This document shows, in pieces, positions 9,367-42,155 of a DNA stretch of 64,000 bases. The stretch is taken from the sequence record MH719082.1; one strand, written 5' to 3'. The DNA comes from Escherichia phage vB_EcoM_IME392. The notes under the pieces are model-generated. The model searched no databases. It saw only the letters and a list, made by a program, of their open reading frames with translations, and was not told where the DNA came from. The position numbers and the translations under genes were made by a program. The first letter of the stretch is position 1, and each line of letters starts with the position of its first letter.

Positions 9367-11193
9367 ATGGCTGATGCATTAGATGAGTTTATTGAAGCAT
9401 GTGGCTCTAGACTCGAAGCTATGCATCAGTTAGCATTGATGAGTGGCTACGAGGAGCGGGTTCCAACGATCCAAGAGTTCGTAATGGATCCATACTACCT
9501 GGGTAAGTCCTTGGTAGATGCTGATGGTGTCTGCTCGGTCTATCCTATTTGGATGGATGCTCTGGCTAAGATTTATCCTACTCCGTACACTTCACCAGCC
9601 GTAGAGATTTATCTCACTGGTGGTATCGGTCTTGGTAAGTCTACTGCTGCTAAGATTATCACTCTCTATGACTTGTGCAAATTGCTATGTCTTAGAGATC
9701 CTCGTGCACATTTTAAACTTCTGCCATCCACAGTAATTCGCTGGATGCTGATGAACGCCACTAAAGGTCTGTCCTACGATGTACTCTATGCAGAGATCAT
9801 CGAGTGGATAGAGAATAGCCCATTCTTCAAAGGTAAGATGACTGGTGGTAAGAATCCTCGTACTCTGTTCATTAAGAACGTAGACTTAGGATTCGGTTCT
9901 CGTGGTCAAGATGCTCTGGGTCAGGCTACCGTAGGTGCCATCTTCTCAGAGATAAACGACATGACCGTAGTTCACGGTCAAGCAGAAGATAACTTTGATA
10001 CCATCTATACTCGTATGAACTCTCGTTTCGGGGGTAAAGGGGTAGAGATGATTGGCCACTTGATTCTGGACTCTTCGAATAAGGGAAACCGTTCCTTTAT
10101 CGATGTTCGTCTAGAGGATAAGGCCAAGAAAGGAATTCACGACTATCTGTTATTCAGATACGCTCACTGGGAAGCTAAATGGCACCTCGGCGGGTATTCT
10201 GGGGAAATGTTCTACGTCTATGCTGGTGACCAGTATCGAGATCCGTTTATCTTCGATGAGAATACTCTCAAGATTAAAGACGGTCTGGAGCCATCTCGTA
10301 TTATCTCTGTACCTGTTGAACATAGACAGGAATTCGAGACTAACATTGTTAAGTCTCTTAGGGATCTTGCAGGTGTGTCCACATTCGGTACATGGTCGTT
10401 CATCTCGTCCTACGAGGTGCTTAACCGAGCTGCTGATCACATTAACCCTACTGAATCTAACGTGGTGGTTCTGGACTTCTTCGATAAGGAGCAGACTCTT
10501 CACCAGACTATAGATATTCCTAGACTTGCCTTCCTTAATAAGAAGGATAGGTTCATCCATATTGACTTGGGTCTTAAGAACGACTCAACTGGTATAGCCT
10601 GTTCCTATCTCGATGGTTATGTTGACCAAGAGACTTACGATCCTCTAACCAGTACGCGCATGGTTACTCGTGAACCTAAGATCGTTACTGAGTGGGCGTT
10701 AGAAATTACCTGCCAGCCTGGTCAGGAAGTTCCTATCTACAAGATTAAGAACTTCTTAATAGAAGCATCTCAGCAGGGTTACCCAATTAAAATGGTAACC
10801 ACCGATGGATACCAATCCACTAACTTACGTCAGGATTTAACTCTGGCTGGGTTCGAGACTGCTCTGCTATCTGTTGACCGGACTAAAGATCCATATAACT
10901 ACTTAAGGAACTCGATTCTCGAAGGTCGCAGCACTATTCCAGCTGTACCTAAGTTGATCAAAGAACTTAAGGAGCTAGAGGAAGGCGAAGGTAAATTCGA
11001 CCATCCACCAGATGGCTCTAAGGATATCGCGGATGCCGTATGTGGATCCCAATGGTCTGTTAAGGAGAATATCCATAAGATCGGGTCTACTGCTACGGTT
11101 GAAGATCTTCAAGTTGCACTCCACGAACTTAATAAGTCTAGGGATGCGAAGGAGATGTTTCGGAACATTATTAAGCAACGAGTGGGTGGCTAA
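9367..11193 (+). CDS. terL: terminase large subunit
   Basis: 608 aa; N-terminal P-loop GGIGLGKST; C-terminal RNaseH-like nuclease motifs IHIDLGLKNDSTGIA and DHPPDGSKDIADA; followed by portal. Confidence 0.75.
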   Translation: MADALDEFIEACGSRLEAMHQLALMSGYEERVPTIQEFVMDPYYLGKSLVDADGVCSVYPIWMDALAKIYPTPYTSPAVEIYLTGGIGLGKSTAAKIITLYDLCKLLCLRDPRAHFKLLPSTVIRWMLMNATKGLSYDVLYAEIIEWIENSPFFKGKMTGGKNPRTLFIKNVDLGFGSRGQDALGQATVGAIFSEINDMTVVHGQAEDNFDTIYTRMNSRFGGKGVEMIGHLILDSSNKGNRSFIDVRLEDKAKKGIHDYLLFRYAHWEAKWHLGGYSGEMFYVYAGDQYRDPFIFDENTLKIKDGLEPSRIISVPVEHRQEFETNIVKSLRDLAGVSTFGTWSFISSYEVLNRAADHINPTESNVVVLDFFDKEQTLHQTIDIPRLAFLNKKDRFIHIDLGLKNDSTGIACSYLDGYVDQETYDPLTSTRMVTREPKIVTEWALEITCQPGQEVPIYKIKNFLIEASQQGYPIKMVTTDGYQSTNLRQDLTLAGFETALLSVDRTKDPYNYLRNSILEGRSTIPAVPKLIKELKELEEGEGKFDHPPDGSKDIADAVCGSQWSVKENIHKIGSTATVEDLQVALHELNKSRDAKEMFRNIIKQRVGG

Positions 11194-12771
11194 ATGGCAG
11201 AAAACGAAGTGGTCTCTAAGCAAGACTTAGATGACAAACCTGGTTCTCGCCAGGAGGTCTTAGCAAAGTTGCTAGACGATACCATCACTATGAAGCATAG
11301 TGATGGATTGTTGGGCACGGTACAGGCTTACCTTACCGATCGCCTTACCAATATGGTAACCACTCGTGAAAAGTATTTCAACGAGCTGGCGAGATTTCGC
11401 TATAACTATATCACAGCTGGTATCTATGATATCATCTGCAATGACGTGCTCACCAATACGGATGATGGTGGATTCGTCATAGAGATTGAAGGTGATGAAG
11501 AACTGACTCAGGAGGCGAACGAGCTAATTAAGGCTCTGGCCATCCCGGACTTCCTCACCTCCATTTTGCCGGAGTTACTGCACTATGGATCATACCCCTT
11601 AAGACCGTCACTGGAAGATGGCGAGGGATTGATTGGGTTGGTGGATGATTTTGATCCGCGTGATGTTATCGCAGTAACTGATTCATCCGGCCTTCCTATT
11701 TTCTTCTTCGTGAATTACACGACTAAAGATGCTGGGTACATAGACTATGAGTCTCGTCAGAAGATGGAGTATCTAGGTCCTCAAGAGGTATCTTACCTCT
11801 CTCTGGATCAGAACTTCATTAAGCTGCCGATTCCCGATAAAGTCACTGCCCAGATGAAGCGTAAAATTACGGAAGAGTTGGGTGAAGACGAACCTATGGC
11901 TAAGCTCATGGGTAAGTCGATTAAAATTCGTTCGTCCTTGTCATTCTTATGGGGATCTCTGGATAAGCTCAAGAATATCTTGATGCTGGATAAGGTTAAC
12001 GTCTATAAGACGCTGGCTAACCTCCTGAGTCCGTCTGTAATCGGTGTTCCTCTCCCGAATAATAACGACATTAAGCAGATGAAGTCTATAGTCAACGACT
12101 ATGACCAAATCATTAACAGTACTAACCTGTTTGCTGCTGATATGAGTAACCTCCAGTTTAACCTGCAGGATATTGTATCAGTTAAAGTCGTTCCTATCTC
12201 TGGAGATCGGTCTGTACCTCAGATCCTGGATACTGGTAAGTCGGATAACACTATCGATCCAGAGAAGATCAGATCCGAGTTAGAGGTTCTGTTACAGTCC
12301 TATGGTATTCCTCTGGAATTATTCCTCGGAAGCCTTTCCTCTAAGGATAACCTAAGGACGAATATTCGTTATGCTAAGAAGATCAAGCGCATCGGTAAGA
12401 GCCTGTGTAAATGGCTGCAATATCTGCTGCTGTTACACTTCGGCTTTAAATACGAGAATCTGGATCTCGAGTTATCTGAAATTAAGGTAACACTGAAGTC
12501 CTCTATTAACGTAGATGCTCTTGAGAATATGGAGACTCAAGATCTTCTTATCACAAGTATTAATGGTATGACTGGGATGCTGGATTCTCTGAAGAACGAG
12601 ATCGAGAACTCCAATTATACTATTGATAACGATGCTCTGCTTAAGGTAGTCGCGGATACTCTCGCAGACATAGGCTCTCCGTTCCACGGAGTAATTAAGC
12701 TTAAGTCCGAGGTCCCTATAACCCAGCAGACTCCTCCTGCTCCCCCAGAAGATGGTGAAGAGAATGAATAA
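11194..12771 (+). CDS. portal protein (positional and size-based)
   Basis: 525 aa directly after terL; acidic C-terminus. Confidence 0.55.
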   Translation: MAENEVVSKQDLDDKPGSRQEVLAKLLDDTITMKHSDGLLGTVQAYLTDRLTNMVTTREKYFNELARFRYNYITAGIYDIICNDVLTNTDDGGFVIEIEGDEELTQEANELIKALAIPDFLTSILPELLHYGSYPLRPSLEDGEGLIGLVDDFDPRDVIAVTDSSGLPIFFFVNYTTKDAGYIDYESRQKMEYLGPQEVSYLSLDQNFIKLPIPDKVTAQMKRKITEELGEDEPMAKLMGKSIKIRSSLSFLWGSLDKLKNILMLDKVNVYKTLANLLSPSVIGVPLPNNNDIKQMKSIVNDYDQIINSTNLFAADMSNLQFNLQDIVSVKVVPISGDRSVPQILDTGKSDNTIDPEKIRSELEVLLQSYGIPLELFLGSLSSKDNLRTNIRYAKKIKRIGKSLCKWLQYLLLLHFGFKYENLDLELSEIKVTLKSSINVDALENMETQDLLITSINGMTGMLDSLKNEIENSNYTIDNDALLKVVADTLADIGSPFHGVIKLKSEVPITQQTPPAPPEDGEENE

Positions 12772-13018
12772 ATCTGAGCTGCTTATGCAAGCTGTTGATG
12801 AGTCTGCTGCTACTACGTACACGCTGACTCGCCTTGCAAAAGATAACAGCGATACCGTAAATGGTGTGCTGGATAACTTCCTCCGTGACGTGCAGATCCA
12901 CGATGCTGGCGCTACTGCATCTACCGATGACAATGGCGATCTCACAGTAACTACTCGCCTCGGCGATGGTCTGACTTATATCATGGAAAAGTACGGCTTC
13001 AGCTACACTAAGTCGTAA
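12764..13018 (+). CDS. hypothetical head-module protein
   Basis: ORF, start at internal ATG. Confidence 0.4.
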   Translation: MNKSELLMQAVDESAATTYTLTRLAKDNSDTVNGVLDNFLRDVQIHDAGATASTDDNGDLTVTTRLGDGLTYIMEKYGFSYTKS

Positions 13019-13030: not shown

Positions 13031-14467
13031 ATGGAAGTCGTAGACTCAGTCAATGCTGTTGACTTAGTTGAGGTATCCGAGGCAGTCCAATTCGACGTAG
13101 TTGAAAACGCATCCGAAGTTGATGGAAAATACGTCCTAGCGAAAGCTGTAGGTCCTGCGTTCTTTCCTGGTCAAACCTCTGGTAATAAAGTTTATTACCC
13201 CGAGGCGCTCTGGGAAAAAGTGCTGGCCGATGGGGACGTTAATTCCCGGCTGCAAAACCGTACCATGTTTGGTACGATTGGTCACGACATTGAGGATATC
13301 AATGACGAGGTCATCCGTCGAGGCGAACTGTCTCATATCGTAACTAAACTTTTTGTAGATGATGCTGGTGTAGGTCGAGCTGAGTATCTGGTGGTCAATA
13401 CCCCGACTGGTCAGATTCTCAACACGCTACTCCGAGCAGGCTCTAAGCTGCGGGTGTCTACAAAGGCTAAGGGAGCGTTGTCCCATCCAGATGAGAATGG
13501 GGTCAAAACTCTCAGAAGCTACTATCTTAAAAGGATAGACTTCGTACTTACCCCAGGATTCGAGCAGGCACTGCCCGAAGTAGCAGAGTCTCTGAACAAA
13601 ATCCGTAACCAACTACCAGATCCCGTCGAGGAGAGTAAAATGGAACAGAACGAATTCATTGAGCACCTTAAGACTGAGAACGCTCAGCTGAAGGCTCAGG
13701 TTGATGAATCCAAGCAGGCCAATACGGTCCTGAAAACTCAGCTGGATGAAGCGAAGACCCAACTGGCTACCGCTACCGCCCAGCTGGCTGAAGTTAACGA
13801 GTCCCTGGCTAAATACCAGACTCTGGGTACCTTCGAGCAGGTAGACGAAGCACTGACTAAAGGTGCGGAAACTATCACCACTCTGAAAGAGTCTCTGAAC
13901 GAGGCTATCGAAGAGTCTGCTCACGACGTCCACGATCTGGAAGTCGTAGAAGAAGCTCTGGAGAAATACAAAGAGCTGGGTACTCCTGAAGAGATCTCCG
14001 AAGCTATCGCCACCCTGAATGGCTTGATCGAAGAGAAAGAGACCCAGGTCTGCGAATCTCTGGCCAAGAAATTCAAACGCAGCCCGAGCATGATTAAAAC
14101 CATGCAGACTGCGCTGGGTGGCCTGGATAAAGTCGAAGAAGCTCTGGTAGCTGAAGCTGCCGAACTGGGCATCAAAATCGACGAATCCGACGATGGCGAA
14201 GATAAAGGCGACGGTAAAGACGATAAGGGTGATGACAAATCCGACAAGAAAGATGGTGGGGATGACAAAGGCGACGATGCCGATGAATCCAAGAAAACTC
14301 CGTCTAAAGTCGAAGAGTCCCTGAATCGTGTAAATCGCCTGGGATCTCTGATGTCTACCAAACAGATCCGCACCAATCTGATTAATACCCAGAAAGTTGA
14401 CGAGTCTGCTGGTAAAACTGCCGACGCGCCTCAATCTCGTGCCGGTAAACTGATGTCTCGTCGATAA
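13031..14467 (+). CDS. putative prohead protease-scaffolding fusion protein
   Basis: 478 aa; globular N-terminal 200 aa followed by Ala/Glu/Lys/Gln-rich coiled-coil and acidic D/K-rich tract typical of scaffolds; sits between portal and capsid. Confidence 0.5.
   Translation: MEVVDSVNAVDLVEVSEAVQFDVVENASEVDGKYVLAKAVGPAFFPGQTSGNKVYYPEALWEKVLADGDVNSRLQNRTMFGTIGHDIEDINDEVIRRGELSHIVTKLFVDDAGVGRAEYLVVNTPTGQILNTLLRAGSKLRVSTKAKGALSHPDENGVKTLRSYYLKRIDFVLTPGFEQALPEVAESLNKIRNQLPDPVEESKMEQNEFIEHLKTENAQLKAQVDESKQANTVLKTQLDEAKTQLATATAQLAEVNESLAKYQTLGTFEQVDEALTKGAETITTLKESLNEAIEESAHDVHDLEVVEEALEKYKELGTPEEISEAIATLNGLIEEKETQVCESLAKKFKRSPSMIKTMQTALGGLDKVEEALVAEAAELGIKIDESDDGEDKGDGKDDKGDDKSDKKDGGDDKGDDADESKKTPSKVEESLNRVNRLGSLMSTKQIRTNLINTQKVDESAGKTADAPQSRAGKLMSRR
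13640..14467 (+). CDS. nested in-frame scaffolding protein (internal start within 13031-14467)
   Basis: in-frame ATG at 13640 preceded by GAGGAGAG; codon usage switches to highly optimised exactly here. Confidence 0.4.
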   Translation: MEQNEFIEHLKTENAQLKAQVDESKQANTVLKTQLDEAKTQLATATAQLAEVNESLAKYQTLGTFEQVDEALTKGAETITTLKESLNEAIEESAHDVHDLEVVEEALEKYKELGTPEEISEAIATLNGLIEEKETQVCESLAKKFKRSPSMIKTMQTALGGLDKVEEALVAEAAELGIKIDESDDGEDKGDGKDDKGDDKSDKKDGGDDKGDDADESKKTPSKVEESLNRVNRLGSLMSTKQIRTNLINTQKVDESAGKTADAPQSRAGKLMSRR

Positions 14468-14522: not shown

Positions 14523-15950
14523 ATGACTAAGCAGAATATCGTGCTGTCTAACGTCGACGAGGCCTCCGCAGATGTAATGGCTAACGCCTACTTCGACAAA
14601 TACAGCGAGCAAATGGATGCATACGCATCTAACTCCATCCTGGCGCGTGTTAACGAAAGCCTGTCTCCGTTCGAAATGATCGCAGTCGGCCAGACTCTGG
14701 ACCAGTACCAGGGTTACCAGAAGTACGTCAACGAATCCATGAGTGGCCTGGCATCTATGGGTGCTATTCCGGCAATCGCTCTGGACGTTATTACCGCATC
14801 TGTCGGTAACTCAATCCTGCCTCTGATCTGCTCTATCCAGCCGATCCCTGAAGAGCATGGTATTGTTTACTACCGTCAGATCAAAGCATCCCAGACCTCC
14901 GGCGGTTACAACGCAGGCGACGTGATCCGTGATCCGCTGTCTCGTGATAATCCTGGCGAAGGTACCCTGGGTGCCCAGCGTCGTCAGCAGGTAATCGGCA
15001 CCGGTAACGGCACCGAAACTAACTTCGCTGCTACTCTGGAACTGTATCCTGTTCGTCCGAACATGGTCTTCGTCAACATCCCTGGTGTTGGTAATGGTCA
15101 GGACGACGGTAACGGTAAGATCCTGGGCTTCGGCTTCGATGGTACCATCAACTACAAAACTGGCGCGATCACTATCGCAGCTAAAGCAGCTGTTCCTAAC
15201 ACTGCTCAGGTTGCTGTTCGCTTCGACGTTGATGTTGATCTGCTGGATAACCTGGATAAAATCCAGGCTGGTCTGATCTCCAAAGATATCCGTGCGGAAA
15301 TCTGGACCCTGGCTGCTGATATCGGCACCTTCGCTAACTTCGCCTTCCAGAATCGCTTCGGCCGTTCTGCAGAAGACGAAGTCGCATCCGACCTGTCCAA
15401 CGAAATCACTAACGTCCTGAACGTTCGTGCTATCAAACAGATCGCTGCGATGGCTATCGGAGAAACTATCTGGGATCAGACTCCTCCGGCTGGTGTTTCC
15501 TACGCTGAGCACAAACTGACTCTGGTTGATACCTTTGCTCGTGCTGAATCCGTGTTGCACAACAACGCTGGTGTAGGCTCTGTGAACCGTATCATCTGCG
15601 GTCGCTCTGCTGCTGCGGTATTCCGTGGTATGCCTGAGTTCACCCCAGCAGGTCAGTCTGTCGGTACTTCCGTATCTCTGTACGGCTTCTACGACGGCGT
15701 GCCGGTAATTCGTGCAACTGGTGTTATCGAAGATAACGCTGCGTATCTGATCTGCAACCCGGACGGTTACTTCAACTGCCCGCTGGCATACTCTCCGTTC
15801 ATGCCGCTGATCGTTACCGATACCATCCAGAACCCGAACAACCCGTTCCGTGGTACTAAAGCTGCTGGCGTTTGGGCGGGTATGACCCAGCTGAACCCGA
15901 ACCTGGTAACCAAACTGACCTTCAAACTGGCTAACTTCTCTGGTAGCTAA
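14523..15950 (+). CDS. major capsid protein (putative)
   Basis: 475 aa; strongest codon optimisation in window; follows scaffold; strong terminator downstream. Confidence 0.6.
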   Translation: MTKQNIVLSNVDEASADVMANAYFDKYSEQMDAYASNSILARVNESLSPFEMIAVGQTLDQYQGYQKYVNESMSGLASMGAIPAIALDVITASVGNSILPLICSIQPIPEEHGIVYYRQIKASQTSGGYNAGDVIRDPLSRDNPGEGTLGAQRRQQVIGTGNGTETNFAATLELYPVRPNMVFVNIPGVGNGQDDGNGKILGFGFDGTINYKTGAITIAAKAAVPNTAQVAVRFDVDVDLLDNLDKIQAGLISKDIRAEIWTLAADIGTFANFAFQNRFGRSAEDEVASDLSNEITNVLNVRAIKQIAAMAIGETIWDQTPPAGVSYAEHKLTLVDTFARAESVLHNNAGVGSVNRIICGRSAAAVFRGMPEFTPAGQSVGTSVSLYGFYDGVPVIRATGVIEDNAAYLICNPDGYFNCPLAYSPFMPLIVTDTIQNPNNPFRGTKAAGVWAGMTQLNPNLVTKLTFKLANFSGS

Positions 15951-15976
15951 GATTTGATGCGTTAAGTTGGCATTAG

Positions 15977-16010
15977 CTACGGCCTCTTATTGAGGCCGTA
16001 GTTTTTCTTG
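15977..16010 (+). terminator. rho-independent terminator after capsid gene
   Basis: perfect 10-bp stem CTACGGCCTC/GAGGCCGTAG, loop TTATT, then TTTTTCTTGTTTT. Confidence 0.7.
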
Positions 16011-16022
16011 TTTTAATTTACT

Positions 16023-16052
16023 TTGACATATCTCGATTAGTCAAACTAAATT
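16023..16052 (+). promoter_or_regulatory. sigma70-like promoter candidate
   Basis: TTGACA (16023-16028), 18-bp spacer, TAAATT (16047-16052); palindrome ACTAAATTTAGT (16045-16056) overlaps the -10. Confidence 0.4.
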
Positions 16053-16099
16053 TAGTCAGGACGACACACTAGCACTAACCACCAACCAAAGAGGTAGAT

Positions 16100-16816
16100 A
16101 TGTATAAGGTAACTAATAAGTCCGAGTACACTGTTCAAGCTAACCTATCCGCAGACGGTCCGGTAAGCATCGCTCCTAAAGAGAGTCTGACCATTCGTAA
16201 CCCGTCTCGCGATTTCGTTAAAGAGATCGGTCGCGTATCTAACCTGCTTTCCTATACGGAAGTAAGTGGTGATGCGTCTGGTGATCAGACCGATAAAGAC
16301 GAAGTGGTCGTAGCTGAGCCAGAACATCCGAACTCGCTGGACAAAGAGCCAGGTACTGTTATTCAGGGTACTGCTCTGACCAAAGAAGAAATTAACACTG
16401 CTGCTGAGCGCTCTGATCATAAGATCAATGACAAAGTGCCCGACACTGCGGTAGTTGGCGCTAACCAGGATGCTGCTGCACCTAAAACTGGTGGCGAGTC
16501 TAACGTCGCTCCTAAAGAAGTGACTGACGCAGAATTAAATAACGCTGGCGCTGGCGCTGCTGCCGGTGGTGAAGATCAGGGTACTGGTAATGCGGAAGAT
16601 GCTTCTGCAGATAAATCCGACTCTGGCATCCGTCAGTTTACCGGTGAAGAACCTACCAAATCTGAAGATGACGGCGAAGGTGAGCAGTACACTCGCGAAG
16701 AGCTGGAATCTACTCACTGGGCTACCGTTAAGAGCATCGCGGAATCTAACGGTATTGACTACACCAACAAAGGTGAAGCGATCACCGCTATTCTGGATGC
16801 TAAAGTAACCAAGTAA
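16100..16816 (+). CDS. acidic virion-associated protein with C-terminal HeH/Rho-N-like motif (decoration protein candidate)
   Basis: 238 aa; AAGAGG RBS; highly optimised codons; C-terminal WATVKSIAESNGIDYTNKGEAITAIL. Confidence 0.45.
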   Translation: MYKVTNKSEYTVQANLSADGPVSIAPKESLTIRNPSRDFVKEIGRVSNLLSYTEVSGDASGDQTDKDEVVVAEPEHPNSLDKEPGTVIQGTALTKEEINTAAERSDHKINDKVPDTAVVGANQDAAAPKTGGESNVAPKEVTDAELNNAGAGAAAGGEDQGTGNAEDASADKSDSGIRQFTGEEPTKSEDDGEGEQYTREELESTHWATVKSIAESNGIDYTNKGEAITAILDAKVTK

Positions 16817-16849
16817 TAGCTAAAATTCAACGAGCCTACGGAGCATAGT

Positions 16850-17386
16850 ATGGATATTCGCAGTTTAGTTCTCCAGGGAACAGATACTCTCAGGAAGAAT
16901 CAATATCCTACTGGTAAAGTAGGCTCGTTCGATTTTAACTATGTTATGAGAAATAAACAGCTCATCGTTAAATCTCAGGCACGCCCTTCCAGTGGTGAAT
17001 CGTATTCGGCATATCAGTCCCAGATTGTATTCTCTGGAGTAGGTTATTCTGATGTTCCGTCTCCTGATTTCCCTCTGACGTACAATTCTCCTAACGGGAA
17101 GATTTATCTTCAGAAGCCTACCACTCGGAATACTGTCCAGATCAGATGTTCTTGTAAGGACGATTATTTCATGTGGCAGTACCCTAATAAGTCTAAGGGT
17201 GCTCTCCTGGGTAGATTTAAGCCGTATGTACGTAAAACAACGGATCGTCCTCCTAGAAACCCAGGCAACGTACCAGGAATGTGTAAACATGCTCTGGCTC
17301 TCGTGAAGAATCTGTTTTCTATGGGAGTTCTCCAGCCTGATTCTCAGGTACAAGAGTACTTATCAAGACCAACTAGGAGTATATAA
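16850..17386 (+). CDS. hypothetical structural protein
   Basis: ORF in head-tail gene series. Confidence 0.5.
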   Translation: MDIRSLVLQGTDTLRKNQYPTGKVGSFDFNYVMRNKQLIVKSQARPSSGESYSAYQSQIVFSGVGYSDVPSPDFPLTYNSPNGKIYLQKPTTRNTVQIRCSCKDDYFMWQYPNKSKGALLGRFKPYVRKTTDRPPRNPGNVPGMCKHALALVKNLFSMGVLQPDSQVQEYLSRPTRSI

Positions 17387-17673
17387 TGGTAACTGCAGCA
17401 GAAGTTCTTTCGTCTGTTGACGAAGCCACTTATACGATCAAGCGCATCAAACAGATTCGTGACGGTCGTCTGGTGATTCGTCAGAAGCGTCAGTACGCTG
17501 GTCCGGCACCTAAGCCAGGATTTAAGCGTAATCCTCAGACTGGCAACATCGAGAAGATGACAGCTACTGAGCACCGTAAGCGTTCTAAAGCTGTCCGTAA
17601 GGTACAGCGTAAGGCCACGGTTAAGCTGAAACGCGCTAAATCAATTCGTCGCAGAGAGGCTATGGGGTTATGA
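17386..17673 (+). CDS. small highly basic protein
   Basis: 95 aa, Lys/Arg-rich; AGGAG RBS. Confidence 0.5.
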   Translation: MVTAAEVLSSVDEATYTIKRIKQIRDGRLVIRQKRQYAGPAPKPGFKRNPQTGNIEKMTATEHRKRSKAVRKVQRKATVKLKRAKSIRRREAMGL

Positions 17674-18299
17674 GTCTGAGCTATGATGAACTCGTTGAAT
17701 CGTTCCTGTTAGAATCAGGGCAATTTATTCTGGATAGTCTGGATGATACTGCTCTTACGCAGGACCGAGTGGAGCTTATCATAGCTAAAGAGCTAGCCAC
17801 CTACTCCAGATATAAACCTAATCTGGTTACTGGAGCTTTGAATCTCTGGAATAACCGAAGATTTACTGGTAAGGATGAGCACGGTAATCCTGAGCCCATC
17901 CCTATCGTAATTCACCGACTATTCGTTAATGGTGGTTTTACTCGCTTGATCACCAACAATAGATTCGGTACCATCTCCCAGAACTACTGGCGCTTCGATA
18001 ACGGAGTGTTCAATATGTATATGGAAGATGGGCAGTACTTGTGTGAGTATGCAGTAGCGCACACCTATAATAAAGAAACTAAGTCAATCGACTCCTTAGA
18101 CTTAACAGCAACTACGTTCATGAGTATGGTTCATGGTAAGATGATGCAAGTCTTAGGCAGGTCCCGACGAGCCTTCCAGATCAGTGATAGTCCTATACTG
18201 ATGGATGGTGATGCACTAATAGCGGACGGCCAACAGATGTATGACCAGGCTATGGAAGATCTTAAAACCCAGAGCGATTACATGTTGGCTTCTATGTAA
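17670..18299 (+). CDS. hypothetical head-tail joining protein
   Basis: ORF, start overlaps upstream stop. Confidence 0.5.
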   Translation: MSLSYDELVESFLLESGQFILDSLDDTALTQDRVELIIAKELATYSRYKPNLVTGALNLWNNRRFTGKDEHGNPEPIPIVIHRLFVNGGFTRLITNNRFGTISQNYWRFDNGVFNMYMEDGQYLCEYAVAHTYNKETKSIDSLDLTATTFMSMVHGKMMQVLGRSRRAFQISDSPILMDGDALIADGQQMYDQAMEDLKTQSDYMLASM

Positions 18300-18308
18300 G
18301 AGGCTTTT

Positions 18309-18872
18309 ATGGAGAAGAGAACTCACCAGGATAGACTGGAGGAGGCTTCCCGCAAGTTCGCATTAGTTCAAATACCTTTAGCAGTGAAAACTGCTGGTAT
18401 ATATTGTCGGTTGTATCGTAAAGTCAACGACCTACGTGATGAGGTCTACGGCAATTACGGAGGAGTCGACGAACTAATCCCCATTACAGCGAACTCGGTG
18501 TATTCTGGCATGGATAATGCAGTTGCATCGGCATCAGGTTCGTCGCTGGACTTATCCAGCTTGGGTACTTTAGAGGACGGTGCGCTAGCTCAGAACGAAA
18601 TCGACGTCTCTTCGGGCTACGAAGTAGAAGACGAGTTCCGAGTGCTGCTTACCGCATCTCAATGGCGAATAGTAGCGGGCTATGAGGGAGGCTTCCTCGA
18701 GGATAGCGGGTATGCTTTTGCTCTTACCTCCAAGGACTTAAAGACAGGTGATGTCGTAGAGTTCGACAGGAAAGACGGAGCTCTCGCGAGATTCCGAGTA
18801 ATTAAGCCGGTATCTCTTGGTCGAAAAGTGGATATCGTTACCAGATTCCAATTATCAAACATAGGGGATTGA
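18309..18872 (+). CDS. hypothetical head-tail joining protein
   Basis: ORF with RBS. Confidence 0.5.
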   Translation: MEKRTHQDRLEEASRKFALVQIPLAVKTAGIYCRLYRKVNDLRDEVYGNYGGVDELIPITANSVYSGMDNAVASASGSSLDLSSLGTLEDGALAQNEIDVSSGYEVEDEFRVLLTASQWRIVAGYEGGFLEDSGYAFALTSKDLKTGDVVEFDRKDGALARFRVIKPVSLGRKVDIVTRFQLSNIGD

Positions 18873-18873
18873 T

Positions 18874-19539
18874 ATGGCTAGTTTGGCGATCACTCCTGCT
18901 GATGTAATTGCTGCTCTTAATAAGTGGTTAGCTACTAACTATAAGACTGTTAAGAGTATCGTGTTTGATCCTATGGCTGGTTATGAAACATCCATAGAGA
19001 ATGTCAGAGCCACGAGTATTCAATTGAATAACTATCGTGAGGCTAAATCCACGATGCCGATTCTGTCGTGGAACCGGACGCCCTTCCGCAGAGGAGATAT
19101 GGGTAAAACCATATCCCAGAAGATGAAAGGTGCCGATGGTAAATGGTACAACGTAACTGTAGCCATGATGAAGATGGACTACAGATTCGTATTCTTCGCC
19201 ACGAATATGAAAGATGTTGAGCAGTTTGAGGTTGACTGGTTAACACAGCGTGGGTTAAACGGGATTACGAATGCTACAGTGAACATGGGGCAGTCGCTAG
19301 GTGAATTTACCTTCGCCTTAAACTGGGGCATGTCTCTGGAAGATATAACCTTTAATCTGGAGACTAATTACTACAAAGCCTTAACTGGCTCTGCGGAGAT
19401 TAGTGGACCGGTTATATCAGCCACGGAACTGGGTGAGGATGACCTCAATAACCTTATCGAGGTGGTTGAGTTCCAACTCCAGTCCTGTAATGGCGGAGTA
19501 CTTCCGGATAAGTTTACAATTACAGATCTCGGAGATTAA
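18874..19539 (+). CDS. hypothetical tail completion/neck protein
   Basis: ORF with RBS AGGGGA. Confidence 0.5.
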   Translation: MASLAITPADVIAALNKWLATNYKTVKSIVFDPMAGYETSIENVRATSIQLNNYREAKSTMPILSWNRTPFRRGDMGKTISQKMKGADGKWYNVTVAMMKMDYRFVFFATNMKDVEQFEVDWLTQRGLNGITNATVNMGQSLGEFTFALNWGMSLEDITFNLETNYYKALTGSAEISGPVISATELGEDDLNNLIEVVEFQLQSCNGGVLPDKFTITDLGD

Positions 19540-19540
19540 G

Positions 19541-19732
19541 ATGTCTGAACAAAATAAAACCGACGCCCCAGTTAGCGAAAAGGTTCGCCTGTTCTCTATT
19601 GTGGATTATGACGTCGAGATCACCATTAAAGGTGGTCAAACTATCCTCGTTCCTCCGAAGGGCATCCTGAAAGATGTTCCTAAAGAGTGGCTGGAAGATG
19701 TCAAACTTCCTGCTGGCGTTAAGATGAAATAA
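19541..19732 (+). CDS. small hypothetical protein
   Basis: ATG 19541 after GGAGAT; 63 aa; optimised codons. Confidence 0.45.
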   Translation: MSEQNKTDAPVSEKVRLFSIVDYDVEITIKGGQTILVPPKGILKDVPKEWLEDVKLPAGVKMK

Positions 19733-19742
19733 GGAGATTTAA

Positions 19743-21542
19743 ATGTCTGCACCACGCGTAAGCTATGCGGAGCGCGATCTGAGTGCGTACGTTCCTGCCA
19801 CTGAGACTATTTATGCGGCTATCGTAGTTGATGCTGTTAAAGGTCCGGTAGAGAAACCGATCGTGCCTGGCAATGCTCCCAACTTCCTGAAAATCTTTAC
19901 GCCAAATGAGCAAATCGACATCGGTATGTCTACTGCGCACTTCTCTGCGCTAACCGTGTTGGAGAAATACTCCAGCGTGGTGGTAGTTCGTGCTGCTTCT
20001 GCTGATGCTCGCTATTCAGGCGCTCTGGTAAATAAAGACGGTACCGTCGTTACTGCCAGTGATATTAAAGATCCGTCTGCAGTGGATATGGACGACGAGT
20101 CCTTCCTGATCGCAGCAGCTAACCAGGGTCTTTGGGGTGATGAACTCCGCTTCCAGGTACTCGGCTATAAAGCTACTGAGACTGTCGCCGTAACTGGTGG
20201 TATTCTTAAGTCTACCCAGAAATGGGGTGCTGGTTATCCGGTTAAACTGGCTGGCTCTAACCTGCCTGCTGAAGTAAATGATTACACCACTTACTTCGCA
20301 GTACCTGCTGCTGGTGGTATTAAGCTGGCAACCAGCCGAGCTAATGCTACCGCATCTACTCCTGTTACATTGACCGTGTCCGATGCTACTGGAGTTATCG
20401 TATCTCCAGCTGTGGAGTACACCAAGATCCCTAATACCTTCAATCTGCGGGTATTTAAAGCGGACGATCTGGTTAATCCAGTGCTGGACGTAATCGGTTC
20501 TAAGATCAATGGTCTTAAGGATCAGGACAATAAGTCTCTGTACATCGAAGATGTTACTGCCGACAATATCTACGCTCAGGTGTTTAATAACCCTCTGAAC
20601 ACTGATCCGGTTACTGACATCGTTATCCCAGCAGCATTGGGTGGTGGTTCTAACGGATCTCCTGTTACCGATGGAGACTGTATTCGTGCTCTGAATAAGC
20701 TCAACAACCCTCGTGAATTCGCTATTAAAGTGATCATGAACGGTGGTCGTACTTCTCAGGCATACGGTTCAGCGATCATCGCACTGGCAGAGTCCCGTGC
20801 TGACTGCGTCGGTATTACCTCGGTTCCTCTGACTGCACAGGGTGGTGTATCTCCTGCCCAGTCTATGGTTAACTATCGTAAGCACGACACTAACTGGGAT
20901 ACCAGTTATGCTGCCATGTATGCGCCTCACGTTAAGATCTACGATCGTTACAACGACCGTAATCTGTGGGTATCTCCGGACGGCGTTGCGACGAAGGCTA
21001 TCTTCGATACCGCATCTAACTTCGAGATCTGGTACCCAGTGGGTGGTAACAAGCGTGGCGTGGTTAACGTGCTGGATACGTACGTACACCTGCTAGACTC
21101 TGACCAGGATCTTCTGTATGATGCGGGTATTAACCCTATCGTATTCGAAGAAGGAGAAGGTATCAAGATCTGGGGTCAGAAGACTCTTCAGTATGCCAGC
21201 TCTATGCTGGATCGTCTGAATGTCCGACTCCTGCTGGTTACCATCGGTCCGGCTATCCGTAAACTGCTGGCGAACTTCCTGTTCGAATTCAACGATGCGG
21301 ATACTCGTGCGCTGGCTAAAGGTATGGTCGATACCTATATGGATTCGATCATGGCTCGTCGCGGTGTTACTAAGTATGTCACTATCTGTGATGATACCAA
21401 CAACACTGCAAGCGATGTGGATAACCATATCCTGCGAGTAAGCCTGCTGGTTTGCCCGAATAACTCGACCGAATACATCCCTCTGACTATTGGTATTACC
21501 AATAACAGTGTGGACTTCGATCTGGCCGCGGAAGCACTGTAA
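19743..21542 (+). CDS. tail sheath protein (putative)
   Basis: 599 aa; AAGGAG RBS; position before tube-sized gene; optimised codons. Confidence 0.5.
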   Translation: MSAPRVSYAERDLSAYVPATETIYAAIVVDAVKGPVEKPIVPGNAPNFLKIFTPNEQIDIGMSTAHFSALTVLEKYSSVVVVRAASADARYSGALVNKDGTVVTASDIKDPSAVDMDDESFLIAAANQGLWGDELRFQVLGYKATETVAVTGGILKSTQKWGAGYPVKLAGSNLPAEVNDYTTYFAVPAAGGIKLATSRANATASTPVTLTVSDATGVIVSPAVEYTKIPNTFNLRVFKADDLVNPVLDVIGSKINGLKDQDNKSLYIEDVTADNIYAQVFNNPLNTDPVTDIVIPAALGGGSNGSPVTDGDCIRALNKLNNPREFAIKVIMNGGRTSQAYGSAIIALAESRADCVGITSVPLTAQGGVSPAQSMVNYRKHDTNWDTSYAAMYAPHVKIYDRYNDRNLWVSPDGVATKAIFDTASNFEIWYPVGGNKRGVVNVLDTYVHLLDSDQDLLYDAGINPIVFEEGEGIKIWGQKTLQYASSMLDRLNVRLLLVTIGPAIRKLLANFLFEFNDADTRALAKGMVDTYMDSIMARRGVTKYVTICDDTNNTASDVDNHILRVSLLVCPNNSTEYIPLTIGITNNSVDFDLAAEAL

Positions 21543-21552
21543 GGAGATCAGG

Positions 21553-22077
21553 ATGCCGCCTATTACTTTGGATCAAGTCCGCAATCTGGGAGACTTCGCC
21601 ACGATCGTCGACTGGGAATTACAGTTCATCACTGTACCTTCCGGCCTGAATAATCTGTCGGATGCAGTCTTCCTGCGTTGCGAATCTTCGGATATTCCGA
21701 AAAAGACTGGTACTTCCACATCTATCCAGATTCGTGGTCTGGTGCCAGTTAAACAGCCTGGGATTTACGCTCCTCCTCAGACTCTTACACTAACCTGTAA
21801 CGAAACTGTGGATAACGCAATCGCTCAGCAGATTGCTAACTGGCGTGAAATGTGCTACCAGACTGGTACTGGTGTTGCTGGTCGTACTCAGGATGTTAAG
21901 GCGAAACTGCGTCTTAAACGTCTGAATCGTCAGAAAGTCGGTATCTGGTATTATGATCTCGAAGGTGTATTCCTGGAAGATTATGATGCTGGTGGCCAGC
22001 TGGGCTCTACTTCGGCTGACGTACTGAAACCAGTCCTGACGTTGTCCTACGACGACTTCAAGGAAGGAGCTCTTTAA
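21553..22077 (+). CDS. tail tube protein (putative)
   Basis: start at ATG 21553 after AAGGAGA; 174 aa following sheath. Confidence 0.5.
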   Translation: MPPITLDQVRNLGDFATIVDWELQFITVPSGLNNLSDAVFLRCESSDIPKKTGTSTSIQIRGLVPVKQPGIYAPPQTLTLTCNETVDNAIAQQIANWREMCYQTGTGVAGRTQDVKAKLRLKRLNRQKVGIWYYDLEGVFLEDYDAGGQLGSTSADVLKPVLTLSYDDFKEGAL

Positions 22078-23483: not shown

Positions 23484-26342
23484 ATGGTTAGCATAGTTAG
23501 AGGCATATCTGGGATTGCTCGTACAGAAGCTACCGATCCGATTAAGGATGCCTCTGATTACGAGCATGCCAGGTCTAAATTGGAAGAAGATCTTATCGGG
23601 ATCCGTTCTACGGTTAAGATACTCTCCAGCAACGATGTAGATGTAGGTCTTAGCTCCGATGAAGTTAAGACCCTGAATACACTGATGGGTAAGTTTTACG
23701 GCAGGGCTAAGTTCTCTACCCAGGAAGCTGAGCAGCTGATCTCCTTAAGAGATAAAGTCGGCCAGGTTGCGGATATGTACGCTACTGCCGAGGATCAAAA
23801 GGCCATCGCTGCGGAATCTTTACTCGACACCTATCAGTCAATATTAAATGACTCTAGACTTACTCGTGGCGTCCGTATGACTGCTATGAGAGAACTGAGT
23901 GGGTTACTTCGGGTACTTAACGTATCCAATTCCTCACTTAGTACTATCAATATGCGGAAGAATAACCGCATCATTGAGCAAGCTAGAGCTGAGTTAGCCA
24001 ATCAGAACGTAAAGATTAAATATTCTGATACGGTAAAGGTTGCTAACTTAACGAACAGGAGTAAGGATGAGAGGGATACTCTTGACAGATTTAACATACG
24101 TCAAACTGGCCGTAATTTAAGGGATTCGTTCCTTAATACCCCATCGCAGTTTTCCGTAGGTTCTGTCCGCAAGGAAGCACTCTCATCAGGTCTAGGTGCC
24201 TTAGGTTTAGGGGACCTGGATAGTGTATTCGGTATATCTGATAAATTGGATGGTGCCATATCATCCATGTTCCGTAAAAGGAAAGATGAACCGGATACTA
24301 CTGACGAAGAATTAAAGGCCATATCTCGAGAGATTCTTAAATCAGAAAATAAACCCGATGGAGAATCTTCCACTGAGGCCTCTGCTAAAGTCGACGGTAA
24401 AGAGGCTAAGGTCGAGATTACTACTCCAGATGCTACTGTAAATCCAAAACCCAGTTTCGGACCTACTCCAGAAGAGGAGCAGAATCAGAAGCTGGACGAG
24501 ATTAACAACAGCATTCGAGAGTTAATTAATGAGACTAGGTCTGGCCAGGACGAACTGTCCCGTAAGCAGACTCAGTTAATTAATGGTCAGTCTACTTTGG
24601 TGGATATCGATGAGCAACTGGTATCGGTAACCAGAGCTAATGGAAGAGCTAACCATGAAGAAATTGATCCTTTCGCTAACGAACAGAAGCAGGGTGCTGC
24701 TGATTCTATCTTTGATGATCTTATCGGTGGTGGCGATGAGCGTGGCCGCAGAGGTAGAAGAGGTAGGGGAAGAAGAGGCAGGACTCGTCTCGGTCGTGGA
24801 CTCAGCAGGTTCGGTAGACTCGGCAGGATGGCAGGCAGAGCAGTCGACGCAGCTGCCACCGGAGGACTTGCGAGAGGTGCTGCTCGTGGAGGTGGTGCGC
24901 TTCTGAGAGCTGGCCTTAAGGGAGCTAAGTTCATCCCAGGAATCGGGTTAGCCGTAACTGCTGGTATGGGAGTTTATGATGCTGTCTCTGGATGGGATGG
25001 AGATAAGGCTAAGGAACTATTCGGTAGTGACGATAACTGGGCTAAGGCTGGCTCATCTGCAGCCTCACTATCCTCTGGGTTAACTTTAGGGTTAGCATCT
25101 CCAGAGGATGTAGTGAATGTCGCTAAGTCTGCTGTAGATACTGTACAGAAGACATACGAAGGTGCGGTTAATATTGCAAATAACCTAACGGCGTCATTCT
25201 CAGGGATGTATAAGAATGCGTCCGACTGGCTTTCCAAGTCCGTCTCCGATACATCTAAGTGGTTCTCCGATAGTTACGACTCAGTAACCAAGTCCATAAC
25301 CGGAGAAATCAGTGAATTATCTAACTTGGTTACAGAATTTATAAATGATCCTATGAAGTCTATAGGTGAAGGTATTGGTGGCCTATTTGATTGGCTATCA
25401 GACCTACCGGTAGTCGGTGACTTCTTTAAAGGACTTAAGAAAGGAGCTGTTGCGGTATCCAATGGGATTATCGGAGCAGGTGCCTCCATAGTTAATGGCG
25501 CAAGAGCTGTTGGTGGAATAATATCCAATGGTTATGACAGTGCTGTTGATGCCGGTGGTAGTATCCTACAGTCCGCTATGCAGAATGCCTCTCGATACCT
25601 CCCAAGCTCTAAGGAGCAGACGGAGCGTAAGAACAATCTGGCAGAGTATGCTAAGCAGCAGGGAATCGACGATAAAGAATTGGCTCTATTCATGGGCCAG
25701 GTTCAGCATGAATCTGGTAACTTCCGTTATAATAAAGAACTAGCCTCTGGTAAAGCGTACGAGGGTCGTAAAGACCTGGGTAACGTAAATCCTGGGGACG
25801 GGGTTCGTTATAAGGGTCGTGGCTGGATACAGCTTACTGGTAGGGCTAATTACCAGAAATATGGTAAGATGCTGGGTATAGATCTCGAAAATAATCCGGA
25901 GATGGCTGAAGATCCTGAAATCGCCAATAAGTTGGCGGTTGCATATTGGAAAGATCGTGTGCGACCACAGCTGGAGAAGAAAGGATCTACTGTTGAAGTG
26001 GCAACTAAGGCAGTCAATGGTGGGTATAATGGGTTAGCAGACCGTGCTGCATATACTGCAGAATGGATGAAGAATGGTTCTGATGCTGAGGCATCTAAGT
26101 CAGGAGCTACCCAGGTTGCTCAGAACGTACCTCTCGAGGTCCCTAAAGCTCCTACCCCTACAGACGATGTTAATAAACAACGTCAAGATCAGAATAATCA
26201 ATTGGCTGCTATGGCTGCTGGTTCCACCAGAAATCAGGATCCTGCTGCTATAACTCCTAACGTACCTTCAGTGGTTACGGATAAGAGTGACACTATTGAT
26301 GACTATGGTCTGGCGTTCTTCAACAAGATGGTGTTCTCATAA
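23484..26342 (+). CDS. tape measure protein with GH19-like lysozyme domain
   Basis: 952 aa; Arg/Gly-rich tract RGRRGRRGRGRRGRTRLGRG; GH19-like block QVQHESGNFRY...YKGRGWIQLTGRANY. Confidence 0.7.
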   Translation: MVSIVRGISGIARTEATDPIKDASDYEHARSKLEEDLIGIRSTVKILSSNDVDVGLSSDEVKTLNTLMGKFYGRAKFSTQEAEQLISLRDKVGQVADMYATAEDQKAIAAESLLDTYQSILNDSRLTRGVRMTAMRELSGLLRVLNVSNSSLSTINMRKNNRIIEQARAELANQNVKIKYSDTVKVANLTNRSKDERDTLDRFNIRQTGRNLRDSFLNTPSQFSVGSVRKEALSSGLGALGLGDLDSVFGISDKLDGAISSMFRKRKDEPDTTDEELKAISREILKSENKPDGESSTEASAKVDGKEAKVEITTPDATVNPKPSFGPTPEEEQNQKLDEINNSIRELINETRSGQDELSRKQTQLINGQSTLVDIDEQLVSVTRANGRANHEEIDPFANEQKQGAADSIFDDLIGGGDERGRRGRRGRGRRGRTRLGRGLSRFGRLGRMAGRAVDAAATGGLARGAARGGGALLRAGLKGAKFIPGIGLAVTAGMGVYDAVSGWDGDKAKELFGSDDNWAKAGSSAASLSSGLTLGLASPEDVVNVAKSAVDTVQKTYEGAVNIANNLTASFSGMYKNASDWLSKSVSDTSKWFSDSYDSVTKSITGEISELSNLVTEFINDPMKSIGEGIGGLFDWLSDLPVVGDFFKGLKKGAVAVSNGIIGAGASIVNGARAVGGIISNGYDSAVDAGGSILQSAMQNASRYLPSSKEQTERKNNLAEYAKQQGIDDKELALFMGQVQHESGNFRYNKELASGKAYEGRKDLGNVNPGDGVRYKGRGWIQLTGRANYQKYGKMLGIDLENNPEMAEDPEIANKLAVAYWKDRVRPQLEKKGSTVEVATKAVNGGYNGLADRAAYTAEWMKNGSDAEASKSGATQVAQNVPLEVPKAPTPTDDVNKQRQDQNNQLAAMAAGSTRNQDPAAITPNVPSVVTDKSDTIDDYGLAFFNKMVFS

Positions 26343-26977
26343 TGGCAGTATTAGACATCGAGAAGCTATACGCGAATCCAGATGCTAGAATTGTCTTAGT
26401 CCATCCTGGTAACAAGTCCCGTACTGTAGGTCTTATAGAGACGGATTTCGGATTCGATATTTCGTCTCTGTTTGAATCTGGTGAAAACTTGATGGCTGGT
26501 ACCTTAACGCGAGGTGCTAACGCGGTAGCTAATACCGTGGGTATGGATCAGATGGTTATACGAAATATTCGTGAAACTATCGCTCAGTGGCGAGGAAGTA
26601 CCAAACCAGTATTTCCAGTGCCTCTGACAATTATCTCATACAATCCATCCATCAGACCTTTGGACATAGTTAAAGAGTTCCTGGCTGGGGTAACATACAC
26701 TACCAAGAACGGACTTATGTTCGGAGCTCCTAATGGGTACTCTGTAACCAAGGCGACTGGTAATTTCAATCCGGATACCGCTATAACAGGTACATGGACT
26801 CTGCAGATCGGCCAGTGGTTCAGGGCAACTAGCCTTATACTCGTGAACGTGTCGACTCAGTACAGCAAGGAAATAGCTCGCTCTACTGGTCAGCCGTTAT
26901 GGGCTAAGGTGCAACTGTCCTTCACCCCAGCATATCTGCCGGATGAGGATCATGTAAGATCCTGGTTTATTAAATAG
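26342..26977 (+). CDS. hypothetical tail/baseplate protein
   Basis: ORF, translationally coupled. Confidence 0.5.
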   Translation: MAVLDIEKLYANPDARIVLVHPGNKSRTVGLIETDFGFDISSLFESGENLMAGTLTRGANAVANTVGMDQMVIRNIRETIAQWRGSTKPVFPVPLTIISYNPSIRPLDIVKEFLAGVTYTTKNGLMFGAPNGYSVTKATGNFNPDTAITGTWTLQIGQWFRATSLILVNVSTQYSKEIARSTGQPLWAKVQLSFTPAYLPDEDHVRSWFIK

Positions 26978-26984
26978 GTGACTT

Positions 26985-27362
26985 ATGTTCAAGATAGACT
27001 CAGACAAATTGGCTCAGAGGTATGATATCTCTAAATTCATGTCTAATGAGAATGGGTCTATCTTGGACTCTGTTGATTCTGAATTTATGTACAAACTGAA
27101 GAATCTTTCTCGGTATGGTACATATACAGTGATCTCAGAAGTGGGTAGACCCGACCTACTCTCAGAACGAATCTATGGTGCTGGATTGACTCAGTACTGG
27201 TGGATTCTTATGATGGTGAATGAGTTGCGGTTCCCATGGGACTTAACCATGAACTTAGTTCTGAGATATCCACTGATTGACGATCTGGAAGATATTTACT
27301 TCTCGCTGACTCCAGATGTGTCATCTGTCTCCGCTACTGCTAAAGTGGAGAGCTTATCATGA
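26985..27362 (+). CDS. hypothetical tail/baseplate protein
   Basis: ORF with RBS. Confidence 0.5.
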   Translation: MFKIDSDKLAQRYDISKFMSNENGSILDSVDSEFMYKLKNLSRYGTYTVISEVGRPDLLSERIYGAGLTQYWWILMMVNELRFPWDLTMNLVLRYPLIDDLEDIYFSLTPDVSSVSATAKVESLS

Positions 27363-32362: not shown

Positions 32363-32370
32363 GTGATTAG

Positions 32371-33138: not shown

Positions 33139-33150
33139 TAGGATATCGAA

Positions 33151-34068: not shown

Positions 34069-34077
34069 GGAATACCC

Positions 34078-34419: not shown

Positions 34420-34420
34420 T

Positions 34421-36195: not shown

Positions 36196-36206
36196 AGAGG
36201 TATAAA

Positions 36207-38266: not shown

Positions 38267-38341
38267 TATTTATTAAGGGGTAGTTATGTCAATTAATTAC
38301 ATGACTCCAGATAGTATCGTGATTGTAAGTGAGGTGTCAAT

Positions 38342-38965: not shown

Positions 38966-39044
38966 ATAAATAGCTACAATAGCAGGTGCAACTTGTACAT
39001 GGGTTATGATAAACGAAGTGTTGACAATATCATAGGGTGATTAA

Positions 39045-42032: not shown

Positions 42033-42155
42033 ATAAAGACTTTTACCGTAGGTAGGAGAAGGTAGAGGCTTCAATTTAAGATTTAACTTAAACTAATCAC
42101 CACTCTAAAGTTACTAAGTGTTTGTACATCATGTAATATTTTATGGAGATCACCA

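Follow-up and report, generated by a model that had tools for sequence, protein, structure and literature searches.

Codon usage in several late genes of Escherichia phage vB_EcoM_IME392 follows highly expressed Escherichia coli genes and points to a probable nested scaffold gene

In Escherichia phage vB_EcoM_IME392 (description in Hu et al. 2021, Arch Virol 166:2505, a paper cited in PMC12210895), our analysis supports a codon optimisation that tracks the proteins expected to be most abundant, runs in the direction of highly expressed Escherichia coli genes and is maintained in related phages. The analysis was based on a stretch of 64,000 nucleotides (nt) of the genome (sequence record MH719082.1), referred to below as the window, and centred on positions 14523-22077, which extend from the major capsid gene to the tail tube gene. 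The pattern is best explained by translational selection acting on those late genes that the phage expresses most heavily, a reading to which we assign a probability of about 0.85.

Gene identities were obtained from profile searches with Pfam and PHROGs. Codon usage was scored by the codon adaptation index (CAI), with weights taken from 35 E. coli K-12 MG1655 genes for ribosomal proteins, EF-Tu and EF-G (5,945 codons). The weights came out as expected, with CTG, CGT, GGT, ATC, AAA and GAA as optimal codons, and all values should be read against two benchmarks, namely a mean of 0.68 for the reference genes themselves and a median of 0.39 for 36 ordinary E. coli genes. Pooled over its 79 open reading frames (ORFs), the window has a CAI of 0.37. 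The z values given below refer to resampling of synonymous codons from the window pool, while a second control also fixes the GC content of third codon positions (GC3). The genes that carry the argument, with lengths in amino acids (aa), are:

14523-15950, plus strand: major capsid gene, Gp23-like (Pfam Gp23, 26.5 bits against a cut-off of 24.4); CAI 0.757, z 17, GC3-fixed z 10.3
16100-16816, plus strand: post-capsid gene, 238 aa, with no match to a Pfam or PHROG family; CAI 0.634, z 6.8, GC3-fixed z 6.0
19541-19732, plus strand: small gene, 63 aa, just 5' of the sheath gene; CAI 0.539, z 2.7, GC3-fixed z 3.2
19743-21542, plus strand: tail sheath gene (phrog_23, Pfam Phage_sheath_1); CAI 0.545, z 8.8, GC3-fixed z 6.3
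21553-22077, plus strand: tail tube gene (phrog_4542); CAI 0.499, z 4.1, GC3-fixed z 3.1
13031-14467, plus strand: prohead (head maturation) protease-scaffold fusion, 478 aa (phrog_207); CAI 0.483 as a whole
9367-11193: large terminase (profile search); CAI 0.371
23484-26342: tape measure with a lysozyme-like domain (profile searches); CAI 0.299

The capsid gene has the highest CAI in the window, at a value that exceeds the reference genes' own mean. Its effective number of codons (Nc) is 32, and it encodes 30 of its 31 leucines by CTG and all 18 of its arginines by CGT or CGC. The first-pass annotation of this DNA, which was made from the sequence alone, had held that the capsid, post-capsid, 63-aa, sheath and tube genes use strongly host-optimised codons, while the terminase, tape measure and baseplate genes do not. 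Scoring the CAI gene by gene agrees with both statements: the former genes (0.499-0.757) pass the GC3 control and differ from the rest of the module far beyond chance, and the terminase, the portal (0.357), the tape measure and the baseplate genes (0.28-0.34) are all unenriched. The 63-aa gene belongs to this set only weakly as, with 62 codons, it is marginal when taken alone; it scores 0.546 and 0.547 in L009 and L010, two relatives of intermediate divergence from the phage.

The shift in codon usage is not simply one of base composition. In the top genes, A-ending codons rise as well, AAA from 0.39 to 0.63 and GAA from 0.52 to 0.67, and as the shifts thus follow the E. coli high-expression preference even to A-ending codons, a simple GC effect or GC drift is excluded. 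Two rare codons disappear altogether: AGA is used for none of 61 arginines in the top genes, as compared to 167 of 825 elsewhere (about 20%), and ATA for none of 107 isoleucines, as compared to 194 of 1080 elsewhere (about 18%). Codon usage in the bulk of the genome leans toward AT.

A close relative, and the sole match in the phage collection, is Escherichia phage EP_H11 (OP688485, 111 kilobases (kb)), with 96.5% DNA identity to the region. Judged by the capsid protein, Acinetobacter phage Ab1-TPeters (63% identity), Ralstonia phage RP13 (55%) and 11 metagenomic relatives (51-62%), nine of which have a full-length protease/scaffold gene, are farther away; L011 is, like L009 and L010, of intermediate divergence. 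In the EP_H11 record, nearly all genes are annotated as 'hypothetical', and the assignment of capsid, sheath, tube and protease/scaffold genes is a gain in annotation for a phage group whose records read almost throughout 'hypothetical protein'. In relatives at a synonymous divergence (dS) of 0.5-2, the CAI profile is kept, with 0.71-0.76 for the capsid gene, 0.51-0.55 for the sheath gene and 0.50 for the tube gene. In Ab1-TPeters and RP13, the same genes are the most biased, albeit toward other, host-appropriate-looking codons (CAA and CTT in Ab1-TPeters, AAG in RP13). When EP_H11 is used as a proxy for the genome beyond the window, no large gene comes near the CAI of the capsid gene; outside the region of the window, four small genes of EP_H11 reach 0.52-0.64, with 0.57-0.64 for a few small non-structural ones.

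One boundary of the bias lies inside a single gene. That the C-terminal part of the scaffold is optimised had been noticed in the first pass, and the change-point analysis bears this out: a step at codon 203 of the protease-scaffold gene separates a CAI of 0.32 on the left from 0.66 on the right, and 0 of 1000 permutations gave a step as good. Codon 204 is an in-frame ATG with GAGGAG upstream, and the two corresponding features are:

13628-13633, plus strand: GAGGAG, Shine-Dalgarno sequence for the ATG at 13640 (anti-Shine-Dalgarno duplex of -8.9 kcal/mol)
13640-14467, plus strand: predicted nested scaffold gene, 275 aa, acidic and helix-rich, without annotation in public records; CAI 0.656, GC3-fixed z 6.4

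The strength of the GAGGAG site ranks third among 385 internal in-frame ATGs and seventh among the 79 gene starts. Both the ATG and the GAGGAG are unchanged in L009, L010 and L011, each of which presents the same CAI step. In Ab1-TPeters and RP13, an internal methionine with an AGGA-type site is found at the equivalent boundary between domains (codon 218 and codon 203, respectively), and the change-points, computed with weights from each phage's own capsid gene, fall at codons 217 and 198. Of the nine full-length genes in the metagenomic relatives, seven have a significant step that runs the same way, each with an internal ATG at about codon 202-227. We conclude from these sequence comparisons that the 3' part of the gene is a nested scaffold gene, which would be translated more than the full-length fusion and yield a separate protein. 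This gene is the most useful by-product of the analysis and appears to be conserved across the lineage. More generally, a codon-usage change-point within a gene can locate an internal translation start, and the approach is usable on other phage protease-scaffold fusions.

The arrangement resembles that of the lambda C/Nu3 nested genes (Shaw and Murialdo 1980, as cited in PMC8508860; lambda record NC_001416), where an in-frame start inside the protease gene gives the C-terminal scaffold as a separate, more abundant protein, as is predicted here, and where the gene order is likewise portal, protease/scaffold and capsid. Unlike in lambda, the capsid here is Gp23-like, the protease-scaffold gene has no detectable sequence relation to lambda C, and the codon step is far sharper, since with the same weights that of lambda C/Nu3 goes from 0.34 to 0.45 and is non-significant. 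In T4, protease gp21 and scaffold gp22 are encoded by separate genes. Next to the protease-scaffold gene, between it and the portal gene, lies a small gene (12752-13018, 84-88 aa) with a CAI of 0.49-0.52, and of 0.46-0.55 with low dS in relatives; its position corresponds to that of the small prohead-core proteins gp67 and gp68 in T4.

A bias of this kind could, in principle, be a matter of history and not of selection on translation, if the high-CAI genes had come from another phage of other base composition. Indeed, GC content is higher at 13-16 kb (0.49-0.52, as compared to about 0.45), and tail-fibre modules have clearly been exchanged, with 30.9-46 kb of the window unmatched in EP_H11. 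However, unenriched genes stand between the enriched ones in one syntenic module that is common to Acinetobacter and Ralstonia phages, and one boundary of the bias lies within a gene, exactly at an internal start codon; for these reasons, a mosaic origin is very unlikely. Moreover, the bias survives the GC3 control and includes the A-ending AAA and GAA shifts, and in each relative the same genes are biased toward different, host-appropriate-looking codons.

The bias is also found in genes other than those listed above. The features concerned, together with their neighbours in the tailspike region, are:

39-50 kb: several tailspike-like genes (profile searches)
39045-42032: endosialidase tailspike, full K1-type; CAI 0.342, unenriched
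42156-44777, plus strand: tailspike-like gene (phrog_6117; PHROG family 'colanic acid degradation'); CAI 0.458, z 5.0, GC3-fixed z 4.8
47103-50147, plus strand: DUF4815 tail/fibre-module gene (Pfam DUF4815); CAI 0.479, z 7.0
54592-55062, minus strand: dUTPase gene; CAI 0.505, z 4.2
56015-56728, minus strand: exonuclease gene; CAI 0.471, z 3.4

The view that fibre genes lack optimisation thus holds for the endosialidase tailspike and not for the genes at 42156 and 47103. The broader statement, that optimisation is confined to high-copy virion genes, goes too far, as the two tailspike-like genes, the dUTPase and the exonuclease are enriched as well. As regards the tailspike region itself, the stretch 30869-46253, which holds the distal baseplate and tailspike module, is without a close DNA match in EP_H11, while its flanks are 92-97% identical; this suggests a swapped multi-tailspike host-range cassette. 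Just past the DUF4815 gene, an apparent gap of 210 nt is filled by an unlisted ORF of 58 aa (50157-50333) with a GGAG ribosome-binding site.

Several points weigh against translational selection on expression and should be considered when referring to the probability given above. The link of the bias to expression is drawn from gene identity, and the two tailspike-like genes, the dUTPase and the exonuclease are enriched without being obviously high-copy. The product of the post-capsid gene belongs to no known family. Synonymous divergence is not clearly lower in high-CAI genes: per-gene dS and CAI correlate with a rho of 0.02 in EP_H11, and of -0.38 and -0.34 in L009 and L010 (p of about 0.2). 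The Shine-Dalgarno sequence of the capsid gene is merely average, ranking 44th of the 79 starts. Finally, in lambda C/Nu3, which served as the positive control for the nested gene, the step had the same direction and missed significance.

That phage structural genes use host-preferred codons has been established across coliphages by Lucks, Nelson, Kudla and Plotkin 2008 (PMC2266997). With the weights used here, T7 gene 10A scores 0.614 and the T7 scaffold gene 0.525, as compared to 0.33-0.38 for tail and internal proteins, while lambda E and D score 0.513 and 0.48. The bias in vB_EcoM_IME392 is of the same kind as in T7 gene 10 and lambda E and D, with a larger contrast (0.757 over a background of 0.37). 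In comparison to the study of Lucks et al., the bias here resolves single genes, and even part of a gene, within one operon-like module. The phage is thus a strong, unusually clean and extreme new example of an established rule, and the rule itself is unchanged.

Between the capsid gene and the post-capsid gene, the window contains three further elements, the stems and arms of which are given in base pairs (bp) or nt:

15975-16013, plus strand: intrinsic-terminator-like hairpin with a 12-bp stem and a 5-nt loop, followed by a T-run (TTTTTCTTGTTTT)
16015-16052, strand not applicable: inverted repeat AATTTACTTTGAC-N12-GTCAAACTAAATT with 13-nt arms, which hold TTGACA and TAAATT
16045-16056: 12-bp palindrome ACTAAATTTAGT

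The stem of the hairpin (15975-16003) begins 25 nt past the capsid stop codon and contains seven G-C pairs, and the T-run extends to 16013, with 10 T in 13 nt. At -22 kcal/mol (z -7.4), the hairpin far exceeds in strength any other terminator-like site on the plus strand between 8.5 and 48 kb. Across five sequences, 3 of the 12 stem pairs have changed on both sides and none is broken (98% of cells paired), while Ab1-TPeters, RP13, L013, L014, L016 and L017 carry strong hairpins of unrelated sequence at the same post-capsid position. A terminator had been proposed at 15977-16010 and is indeed present, with compensatory changes in its stem and with its position conserved. These observations support a hairpin that sets the protease/scaffold-capsid unit apart from the downstream genes, presumably through termination. 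In T7 (NC_001604), a strong hairpin, T-phi, is similarly found right after the major capsid gene 10 and before virion genes of lower copy number. The two systems differ in that T7 has a single-subunit RNA polymerase and annotated phi promoters, and in that the gene following the hairpin is, in the present phage, itself highly codon-optimised.

Two further elements reported in the first pass, a TTGACA-N18-TAAATT promoter and the 12-bp palindrome, fared less well. The promoter sequence is present, with TTGACA at 16023-16028, an 18-nt spacer and TAAATT at 16047-16052 (10 of 12 consensus positions), but it is a consensus match only and doubtful as a promoter, given that its hexamers decay in relatives: the -35 drifts to TTGACG in L009 and to TTGGCT in L010, and the -10 to TAATTT after a 1-nt deletion. 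The palindrome is likewise present in the window but broken in every relative examined, namely EP_H11 and L011, and L009 and L010, where it has a 1-nt deletion; the right arm of the inverted repeat probably gives rise to it as a by-product. The inverted repeat itself is without mismatch in EP_H11 and has a single one in the window, and in relatives it shows one compensatory change, from GC to CG, along with two G.U changes (on the plus strand). No second occurrence of the arm or motif was found in the window.

The promoter match underlies a model that builds on the separately boosted transcription suggested in the first pass: the hairpin would end capsid transcription and a host sigma-70 promoter, with a start near 16059, would re-initiate strongly for the post-capsid and tail genes. 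We regard this model as doubtful. In its favour, the match is the best promoter-like one on the plus strand from 8.5 to 28 kb, and no other intergenic gap of the head module is as large as the one that holds it; the implied leader is C/A-rich, lacks structure and has a good Shine-Dalgarno sequence, and the region is near-invariant among the window, EP_H11 and L011. Nonetheless, promoter-like matches are no more frequent in the region than chance predicts (26 found, as compared to 28.9 expected from shuffled sequence), and an 18-nt spacer is suboptimal. As both hexamers are arms of the inverted repeat, the reverse strand yields the same match, and the pairing of the repeat is kept by compensatory and G.U changes while the hexamers drift. 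In Ab1-TPeters, L013, L014 and L017, moreover, the capsid stop codon and the start of the next gene are 58-79 nt apart, a distance that includes the hairpin and leaves no room for such a promoter in these distant relatives. Finally, with the split beta'-like RNA-polymerase subunits encoded by EP_H11, late promoters could be of a type other than sigma-70; in phages that have polymerases of this kind, the late promoters are short, non-sigma-70 and unpredictable from sequence (PMC7598289).

Three other candidates around this gap were considered and not retained. A shared late-promoter motif from plus-strand intergenic regions, CTAAA[GT][AT]TA, found 5' of three late genes (8804, 16046 and 42105), was dropped as being post hoc and too short, as was CAGGACG at 8787 and 16057 as a late motif, which had been chosen after seeing the data. 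A long-range pairing of 16026-16033 with the start codon at 16100 was rejected, as it is not kept in L009 or L010.

The hairpin might also act not as a terminator but as a stabiliser of the RNA 3' end or as a processing site, with the second hairpin (16015-16052) being part of one RNA element and the downstream genes being expressed from read-through or processed transcripts. This we consider possible, if on the unlikely side. It would fit the presence of a strong hairpin at the post-capsid position in every relative with sequence there, several of which lack a clear U-tract and have the next gene close by, and the G.U changes of the second hairpin fit pairing on the plus strand. On the other hand, the hairpin in the lineage of the window carries a canonical T-run, and for the second hairpin the comparison covers five sequences only and the structure is weak in the window (-6.5 kcal/mol, z -1.75).

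The post-capsid hairpins of RP13 (locus L006, 10450-10500) and L016 (about 4410-4465) share a similar lower stem (GAAGTAC ... GGATTACTTT) and have unrelated upper stems. The common lower stem hints at a recognised sequence element in place of just any hairpin. In the same two relatives, an HNH homing-endonuclease gene follows right after the hairpin (RP13, locus L006, 10588-11331; L016, 4550-5173) and occupies or precedes the slot of the post-capsid gene.

The post-capsid gene in the window has only six homologues, all of them close, and its product shows no significant similarity to that of the gene at the same position in Ab1-TPeters. An AlphaFold2 model, confident for the two terminal domains only, predicts a small beta domain, an acidic disordered linker of about 135 aa and a C-terminal three-helix domain. 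A fold search against BFVD gave only weak Rho_N/SAP-like matches, with the C-terminal domain being HeH/Rho_N-like. In relatives, genes in the same slot encode a weakly conserved 'KVTN' N-terminal domain and variable C-terminal parts, which in Ab1-TPeters are annotated as Ig-like. The modelled layout would suit a decoration protein, without being proof of one. The product is probably abundant; however, calling the gene high-copy is circular, as the basis for this is its codon usage alone.

The proposed translational selection on late genes would operate as follows. Rare codons have been replaced by codons of high expression in E. coli in the genes for capsid, nested scaffold, post-capsid protein, sheath and tube and, to a weak degree, in the 63-aa gene, the favoured codons being among others CTG, CGT, GGT, ATC, AAA, GAA and CAG. 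Late in infection, ribosomes and abundant host transfer RNAs (tRNAs) may limit virion output, such that quicker and less costly synthesis of proteins required in hundreds of copies per particle would give a larger burst or a shorter cycle. The internal start at 13640, with its strong Shine-Dalgarno sequence, would supply scaffold in excess of the full-length fusion, while the post-capsid hairpin would end the capsid transcript or make it more stable, a role played by T-phi downstream of T7 gene 10. Genes past the hairpin could be supplied either by read-through or by a promoter within 16004-16099. The Shine-Dalgarno sequences of the sheath and tube genes rank third and fourth among the 79 starts and may serve as a further device for stoichiometry. 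For phage engineering, the capsid-gene leader, codon set and 3' hairpin are candidate high-expression parts.

Two tRNA genes were found in the window by ARAGORN:

5645-5720, minus strand: tRNA with a CAU anticodon, of the E. coli tRNA-Ile (AUA-reading, ileX) type
6190-6265, minus strand: tRNA-Arg(UCU), which reads AGA

The first is 88% identical to E. coli genes annotated as tRNA-Ile, and a search against Rfam matched only these two tRNAs. The phage tRNAs match exactly the two rare codons that are common in the bulk genes and shunned by the top genes. Bailly-Bechet, Vergassola and Rocha are said to have reported, in Genome Research in 2007, that phage tRNAs compensate for codons that are rare in the host. 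The present case is alike in that the bulk phage genes make frequent use of AGA and AUA, two codons that E. coli uses rarely. It is unlike in that the top genes shun both codons fully, and the tRNAs would, therefore, serve genes of low or medium expression.

A broader, more speculative reading joins these elements into an economy of two tiers, in which the genes of highest copy number use host-abundant codons and are free of phage tRNAs, the others are throttled by tRNA-Arg(UCU) and tRNA-Ile(CAU), the double hairpin after the capsid gene is a processing or attenuation signal for a phage polymerase, and the nested scaffold is lineage-wide. We think it improbable as a whole. Its setting may be a group of poorly studied myoviruses of about 110 kb, infecting Escherichia, Acinetobacter and Ralstonia, that encode RNA-polymerase subunits. 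In EP_H11 (locus L012), 26582-28096 and 29676-31244 encode proteins with RNA polymerase Rpb1 (beta') domains 3-5 and 1-2, respectively. Judged by its domains, this pair is a putative split multisubunit RNA polymerase, jumbo-phage-like and yet in a genome of 111 kb; beta-like partners of the two beta'-like proteins were not identified in EP_H11.

Outside the head and tail genes, a motif of about 35 nt, CCGCTCTTT-N9-CGAAAGGCTGTTAAA, is present in 12 copies, all on the minus strand, whereas 1.5 copies of the 15-mer would be expected by chance:

2864, 3850, 5315, 6842, 7025, 7083, 7688, 8712, 55684, 56759, 59478 and 60875, minus strand: copies of the motif

All copies lie 5' of minus-strand (early or middle) genes, and none is found in the plus-strand structural module. 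The motif looks like a phage-specific promoter class, and four of its copies stand, together with both tRNA genes, in an ORF-poor stretch of 2.4 kb (4681-7061) that may encode further small RNAs.

In the tape-measure-sized protein encoded at 23484-26342 (952 aa), residues 720-920, at the C-terminal end, form a glycoside hydrolase 19/endolysin-like domain. A perfect 11-bp hairpin, GGGACTCACTC-N6-GAGTGAGTCCC, followed by ATTTTTGTG, lies at 52078-52113, where it was not listed by the pattern scanner. It stands at the junction of the plus-strand late module with convergent minus-strand genes, and is probably an end-of-module terminator.

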